Assembly (NCBI RefSeq): GCF_003334335.1
Contig: NZ_QOWQ01000015.1
DNA: 64,000 nucleotides
Direction: 5' to 3' (one strand)
From: Escherichia coli
GTDB taxonomy: Bacteria > Pseudomonadota > Gammaproteobacteria > Enterobacterales > Enterobacteriaceae
Position numbers and translations under genes: made by a program. Shown here piece by piece: positions 55,489 to 55,764 of the stretch (the stretch's first letter is position 1; each line of letters opens with the position of its first letter). The notes below the pieces were generated by a model, which searched no databases, was not told where the DNA came from, and saw nothing but the letters and a program-made list of their open reading frames with translations.

Positions 55489-55675
55489 GAGATACTTAAT
55501 CCTCTTCGTCAATAAATTGAGACCAGACCACACAGTTGATGTGGGTACTGACCGTAAACCCGCATAGTTTACCGTACAGGCGTTACCGTGACATCGTGTA
55601 ATGCACCTGTCGGCGTGATAATGCATATAATTTTAACGGCTATTTGGGATTTGCTCAATCTATACGCAAAGAAGT

Positions 55676-55703
55676 TTAGATGTCCAGATGTATTGACGTC
55701 CAT
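55676..55703. promoter_or_regulatory. Tandem met boxes (MetJ operator) in the metJ/metB divergent control region
   Basis: tagatgtccagatgtattgacgtccat: consecutive 8-bp repeats related to AGACGTCT. Confidence 0.65.
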
Positions 55704-55764
55704 TAACACAATGTTTACTCTGGTGCCTGACATTTCACCGACAAAGCCCAGGGAACTTCATCAC

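Follow-up and report, generated by a model that had tools for sequence, protein, structure and literature searches.

The two arrays of tandem 8-bp met boxes found in the window (the whole stretch of Escherichia coli DNA that was analysed, 64,000 nucleotides) are almost certainly the MetJ operators of the E. coli metJBLF cluster. One array is shared by metJ and metBL and lies in the divergent spacer between metJ and metB; the other precedes metF (Table 1). That the tandem boxes are the operators of metJ/metBL and of metF had been proposed in a sequence-only reading of the same DNA. The proposal was borne out by the flanking genes, by the matches of the encoded repressor to MetJ, by identity with the published operators, and by conservation in 80/80 (metJ-metB) and 52/52 (metF) loci. 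Nothing substantive was found against it.

Table 1. Coordinates, strand and description of the features of the window.
Feature	Position	Strand	Description
yiiE	6568-6786	+	72 aa; Pfam RHH_1, E 1.6e-11
yiiF	7004-7246	+	80 aa; Pfam RHH_1, E 0.0093 (marginal); PDB 2K5J, 7BY2
yiiX	54379-54987	minus	RefSeq annotation of identical stretch
metJ	55171-55488	minus	105 aa Met repressor; RefSeq annotation, Pfam, PDB
metJ-metB divergent intergenic spacer	55489-55764		276 bp; metJ start codon (complement) ends at 55488, metB ATG at 55765
Second predicted sigma-70-like promoter facing metJ	55630-55658	-	-35 TTGAGC 55658-55653, -10 TAAAAT 55635-55630; promoter scan
First predicted sigma-70-like promoter facing metJ	55657-55686	-	-35 TGGACA 55686-55681, -10 TAGATT 55662-55657; promoter scan
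Shared metJ/metBL operator	55670-55701		Four tandem met boxes, AGAAGTTT AGATGTCC AGATGTAT TGACGTCC
Putative metB promoter	55693-55721	+	-35 TTGACG 55693-55698, 17-bp spacer, -10 TACTCT 55716-55721; read from sequence
metB	55765-56925	plus	First gene of metBL; RefSeq annotation
metL	56928-59360	plus	RefSeq annotation
MetR-like palindrome	59554-59566	+	TGAAGTTTTTTCA; 155 bp before metF ATG, about 70 bp upstream of the met boxes, outside the MetJ operator
Putative metF promoter	59608-59636	+	-35 TTGACG 59608-59613, 17-bp spacer, -10 CATCTT 59631-59636; read from sequence
Degenerate fifth octamer	59628-59635		CTTCATCT; 4/8, -7.7 bits; extra box of the classical five-box metF count
metF operator	59636-59667		Four tandem met boxes, TTACATCT GGACGTCT AAACGGAT AGATGTGC
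metF	59709-60599	plus	RefSeq annotation
katG	from 60889	plus	RefSeq annotation

Locus and annotation

Gene coordinates were taken from an identical stretch of E. coli DNA annotated in RefSeq (locus L001, no mismatches). A segment of 801 bp (55100-55900) was present in 5426/5426 of the complete E. coli genomes searched, and many E. coli chromosomes match it with 100% identity. The annotation under the matched segment is metJ and metB, and the window is E. coli chromosome. Additional places per genome were returned by BLAST for this query because of a REP-type element at 55079-55120 (+), which separates yiiX from the 3' end of metJ. The element matched the Rfam model ES036 with 39.6 bits, slightly more than the gathering score. 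The interval 55489-55764, described beforehand as the metJ-metB divergent region, is exactly the spacer between the two start codons. The metBL operon (55765-59360, plus) is under the control of the operator located in this spacer.

The encoded MetJ matched the Pfam family MetJ (PF01340, E 8.6e-60) and the crystallised Met repressor (1CMA, E 1.4e-67; 1CMA/1MJ2, about 1e-67; also 1CMB/1CMC and the 1MJ series). The cognate repressor gene for the met-box arrays is encoded in the same genome.

The met-box arrays

Both arrays were scored against AGACGTCT in all eight phases, and only one phase stood out at each site. In the metJ-metB spacer, boxes 1-4 match at 6/8 positions each, and the flanking octamers at 4/8 and 1/8. 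The metF boxes score 5, 7, 5 and 5 of 8, in order, and the octamer on the 3' side of the array (ACAACACA) scores 3/8. The arrays are within methionine-regulon promoter regions: the first is 63 bp upstream of the metB ATG and 181 bp upstream of the metJ ATG, and the second ends 41 bp upstream of the metF ATG. The typical distance of an operator to the start codon is within about 75 bp.

The matrix and thresholds were those of Augustus and Spicer, 2011 (PMC3228920, Table 3); each box has to reach at least a quarter of the consensus score, the total at least the consensus score, and two or more boxes have to be adjacent. A weight-matrix scan, the check recommended in the sequence-only reading, gave 31.2 bits for the metJ-metB array and 24.9 bits for the metF array, both above threshold. 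The interval originally given for metF (59630-59670) encloses the whole four-box array. The one given for the spacer (55676-55703) takes in boxes 2-4 with a margin of 2 nt at either end, but misses box 1. A generic repeat finder did not return the metB boxes as a direct-repeat family; at metF, the only feature it saw was a 34-bp imperfect palindrome, centred on GGACGTCT, which contains the array.

Five met boxes are quoted for metF in PMC3274233. The classical fifth box (59628-59635) was not supported by the published matrix. It overlaps the putative metF -10, and its conservation could reflect this overlapping element rather than MetJ binding.

Conservation of the arrays

Eighty MetJ-encoding loci (protein 91-96% identical) were sampled from other Enterobacterales, in genera that include Pantoea, Erwinia, Citrobacter, Klebsiella, Serratia, Photorhabdus, Providencia, Pectobacterium, Hafnia and Budvicia. 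In all 80, metB is divergent from metJ and the spacer holds an array of 4-6 boxes at a distance of 42-66 bp from the metB start. The metF start was covered in 52 loci, and in each of the 52 it is preceded by an array, at 32-97 bp. Only 13 other matrix sites were found in the 849 kb of these loci, or about one in 64 kb.

When 81 spacers were aligned, the mean identity to the base of the window was 0.93 in 55670-55701, against 0.51 elsewhere in the spacer. Upstream of metF, conservation was 0.78 in the boxes and 0.46 in the rest of the region. The met boxes are among the best-conserved blocks in both spacers. Within E. coli, 44 bp of the metJ/metB operator were identical in 5051/5426 genomes. 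The variants sampled (AGAAGTTT to AGAGGTTT, AGATGTGC to GGATGTGC or AGATGTTC, and AAACGGAT to AAATGGAT) all change degenerate positions of the boxes. Between genera as well as within E. coli, bases are exchanged at positions where the matrix is tolerant (A/G at position 1, C/T at position 4).

In 27/80 loci, no match to MetF was found in the sequence retrieved upstream of metJ, which extended to 5.5 kb if the contig was long enough. These loci include L005, L009 and L011-L013, with Citrobacter, Kluyvera and Raoultella among the full-length ones. The full-length cases point to insertions between metL and metF, or to relocation of metF. In two loci that do carry metF (L049 and L052) the metL-metF spacer is about 1.5 kb long.

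Promoters and leader region

Promoters were assigned around both arrays, the metB and metF hexamers being putative and the metJ promoters predicted by a promoter scan. The putative -35 of metB lies inside boxes 3/4, and T16, A17, C20 and T21 of its -10 are at least 95% conserved among the 81 spacers; the consensus promoter scan did not call this promoter (8/12 matches). Of the two promoters predicted to face metJ, the first has its -35 inside boxes 2-3 and the second is outside the array. At metF, the TTGAC and the C-A-T..T-T positions are conserved among the loci, the hexamers were not called by the consensus scan, and the array starts on the final base of the putative -10. A block of about 40 bp to the left of the metJ-metB boxes (55627-55669) is conserved like the boxes, mostly at 80-95% or more across the 81 spacers, and coincides with the two predicted minus-strand promoters.

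With promoter elements so close to the boxes, it might be supposed that the blocks owe their conservation to core promoter function (-35/-10) or to the binding of another regulator, with their likeness to met boxes secondary. The overlap of the arrays with the putative metB -35, the predicted metJ -35 and the putative -10/start region of metF lends itself to this supposition, as do the conservation that runs 40 bp further left in the metJ-metB spacer and the separate MetR-like palindrome upstream of metF. Hexamers alone, however, leave unexplained 32 bp of conservation with an 8-bp period and the match to the MetJ matrix in every genus. Substitutions are found at positions tolerated by that matrix, and direct binding of MetJ has been shown (PMC3228920). 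Since overlap with promoter elements is the expected mode of a repressor, it is not an alternative explanation, and conservation for promoter function in place of MetJ binding is judged very improbable.

An inverted repeat (ACCGTAAAC/GTTTACCGT) is present at 55551-55575 in the metJ leader region. Of its two arms, the right one (GTAGTTTACCGTA) is conserved in many Enterobacteriaceae and the left one is not. The leader hairpin was dropped as a candidate because its fold z-score was -1.47 and the left arm is unconserved in other genera; the arm that is conserved may belong to a promoter and not to an RNA structure. A search of both regulatory regions against Rfam returned no RNA family.

RefSeq (PGAP) annotates a 44-aa, lysine-rich 'hypothetical protein' (WP_000660586.1) at 59499-59633 (-), antisense to the metF promoter and ending at the met boxes. 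The frame was interrupted at 0-64 codons in 52 other Enterobacterales, with widely varying lengths. This ORF is most likely a spurious gene call.

Frequency of met-box runs in the window

Two consecutive octamers matching at 5/8 or better had been put forward as the dividing line between operator and chance. Both arrays lie above it; the window, though, holds 29 such matches against 31.8 in shuffled sequences, so that the pair statistic does not discriminate and passing it is no proof. The signal resides in longer runs. The window contains exactly two in-phase runs of four or more octamers that each match at 5/8 or better, and these are the two met sites; in 300 dinucleotide-preserving shuffles the mean number of such runs was 0.023 and the maximum 1. 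Runs of at least three octamers at 6/8 or better numbered zero in the same shuffles.

The scan with the published matrix returned three sites in the window, compared with 0.5 expected: the metJ/metB array (31.2 bits), the metF array (24.9 bits) and a match of 12.8 bits at 15472, inside frvR (AGATAGCT AAATATTT). Sites of at least 20 bits were found in only 1/300 shuffles. The frvR match was rejected as a MetJ site and attributed to chance, because it is barely over the threshold and about 0.5 sites are expected by chance. MetJ operators are recovered with the published matrix or by requiring four boxes in phase, not by counting pairs at 5/8.

A functionless resemblance to AGACGTCT arising by chance in AT-rich promoter DNA would account for the frequency of the pairs and for the borderline frvR match, but it has practically no probability for the arrays and is already refuted by conservation and shuffles: runs of four are confined to the two met sites, sites of 20 bits or more are rare in shuffled DNA, position and phase are kept in every locus examined in other genera, and the arrays are published, experimentally tested operators (PMC3228920).

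Proposed mode of repression

The following account takes MetJ and S-adenosylmethionine (SAM) binding, cooperativity and repression in vivo from the literature. The present analysis supplies the sequences and the gene identities, together with the phase, statistical excess and conservation of the boxes. Footprinting of MetJ over the boxes is already in the literature. From published work, each 8-bp met box would take one MetJ homodimer, with its two-stranded beta-ribbon entering the major groove. Dimers on adjacent boxes are in a wheel-like arrangement, and SAM is the corepressor, increasing affinity several-fold (PMC2775130). Because dimers on adjacent boxes touch each other, binding to arrays of four or five boxes would be cooperative. 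The increase in affinity caused by SAM (published work) would provide end-product feedback.

In the metJ-metB spacer, a single array would serve two divergent promoters. The array lies over the putative metBL -35, which bound MetJ would occlude, and metBL would therefore be strongly repressed. Repression of metJ would be only partial because other metJ promoters are outside the array. Three metJ promoters have been reported, one of them constitutive (PMC3228920), and the finding of one predicted metJ promoter under the boxes and another outside them fits the reported partial autoregulation. At metF, the array would span the last base of the -10 and the predicted start-site region, and MetJ bound there would block RNA polymerase.

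A MetR-like palindrome and other elements of the window

MetR is reported to bind to the metF promoter and to repress it (PMC10505187). According to that study the interaction was absent from RegulonDB, and its support there is only DAP-seq plus CRISPRi (PMC10505187). Taken alone, the palindrome upstream of metF is insignificant, with 2 matches in the window against 1.2 expected. In the other Enterobacterales, TGAA-N5-TTCA is perfect in 31/52 loci and has at most one mismatch in 50/52, within -195..-140; conservation is in the half-sites, the spacer varies, and the background rate is 0.087 per kb. We lean slightly towards TGAAGTTTTTTCA as a candidate operator for the action of MetR on metF in E. 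coli, with which the reported binding and repression agree. If so, metF would be under two separate conserved operators, one for MetR upstream and one for MetJ over the start site.

Several other elements were noted in the window. The rhaD-rhaA spacer (21583-21811) has an extra repeat copy, about 180 bp in total, relative to strain ER1709, and two tandem naRNA4 (REP-derived) copies were matched by Rfam at 21596-21666 and 21688-21758. Rfam also identified a SECIS element at 12459-12517 (-), in the formate dehydrogenase alpha-subunit gene; a ClpQY (hslVU) promoter element at 49378-49435 (-); and an L31 ribosomal-protein leader at 54047-54099 (+), upstream of rpmE.

Comparison of MetJ with YiiE and YiiF

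MetJ adopts the ribbon-helix-helix (RHH) fold. In the 1CMA structure, the beta-ribbon contacts the DNA, and Lys23 and Thr25 read bases. MetJ had been recommended as an internal comparison for YiiE and YiiF, which were described as uncharacterised RHH proteins. YiiE is clearly an RHH_1 protein and YiiF only marginally so by Pfam (Table 1), but the structure of YiiF has been solved (2K5J, 'uncharacterized protein yiiF', E 1.1e-49). A further PDB match of YiiF was 7BY2 ('CopG family transcriptional regulator', E 3.2e-29). YiiF was still listed in 2022 among the E. coli transcription factors of unknown function (PMC9308461). With 40% identity over 58 aa, YiiE and YiiF are, by their sequences, paralogous small RHH proteins.

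No BLASTP alignment of MetJ with YiiE or YiiF was obtained at E values up to 100, and the comparison by hhalign was insignificant (probability 0.8%, E 0.073). The three proteins have in common a predicted strand-helix-helix layout. One register was common to the weak hhalign alignment and to the pattern [VL]-x-[IL]-[PS]-x-x-[VA]-[LI]-K-x-L; in it, K23/T25/S27 of MetJ are opposite T5/F7/H9 of YiiE and R11/L13/D15 of YiiF. In this alignment of beta-strand residues, the other check that had been suggested, all three DNA-facing positions differ in both proteins. MetJ is also extended at its N and C termini and possesses a SAM site; YiiE and YiiF (72-80 aa) are without these.

Because the DNA-facing positions differ, MetJ is uninformative on the targets of YiiE and YiiF beyond the shared fold. 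Its use as a comparator is weakly supported: the fold is shared, but homology sufficient for residue-level transfer was not detectable. Better comparators for YiiF are its own structure (2K5J) and the homologue 7BY2. The DNA beside yiiE/yiiF was searched for ORFs of at least 30 aa that might encode a toxin-like or other partner, and no plausible one was found. A REP-like element is present downstream of yiiF.

Comparison with known MetJ operators

The E. coli K-12 (MG1655) operators are listed in Table S1 of PMC3228920. The metB entry (b3939) has 31.2 bits, 4 boxes, a distance of 63 bp and the sequence agaagtttagatgtccagatgtattgacgtcc; the metJ entry (b3938) has 31.2 bits, 4 boxes and 181 bp, and is the metB array reverse-complemented; the metF entry (b3941) has 24.95 bits, 4 boxes, 41 bp and the sequence ttacatctggacgtctaaacggatagatgtgc. 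The arrays of the window match these entries exactly in sequence, bits, number of boxes and the three distances. There is no difference between the K-12 metJ/metBL and metF operators and those of the window, which are the same locus. The operators were already published base for base and belong to a fully characterised textbook system. The met regulon is a textbook example in which a ribbon-helix-helix protein represses cooperatively and in dependence on a corepressor, a picture that nothing in the window changes. The value of the result is mainly that of a positive control, a classic repressor-operator system having been correctly recognised from raw sequence.

In the same work, repression requires at least two adjacent boxes, the spacer and its boxes are typically common to metJ and metB, and the figure for conservation at metJ, metB and metF is 122/122 Enterobacteriales (PMC3228920). 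In that paper, the known E. coli genes are tested by lacZ fusions, with a gel shift to verify MetJ binding, and among the results named are those for metJ (about 0.5), exbB and metH (PMC3228920).

The other known system is the MetJ crystal complex 1CMA, to the chain of which the encoded MetJ aligns over residues 2-105. The natural arrays resemble the operator of that work in having tandem 8-bp boxes, with one dimer each (PMC2775130). They differ in that the complex has two consensus boxes, whereas the natural arrays have four or five imperfect ones, none of them a perfect AGACGTCT and the best being GGACGTCT, at 7/8.
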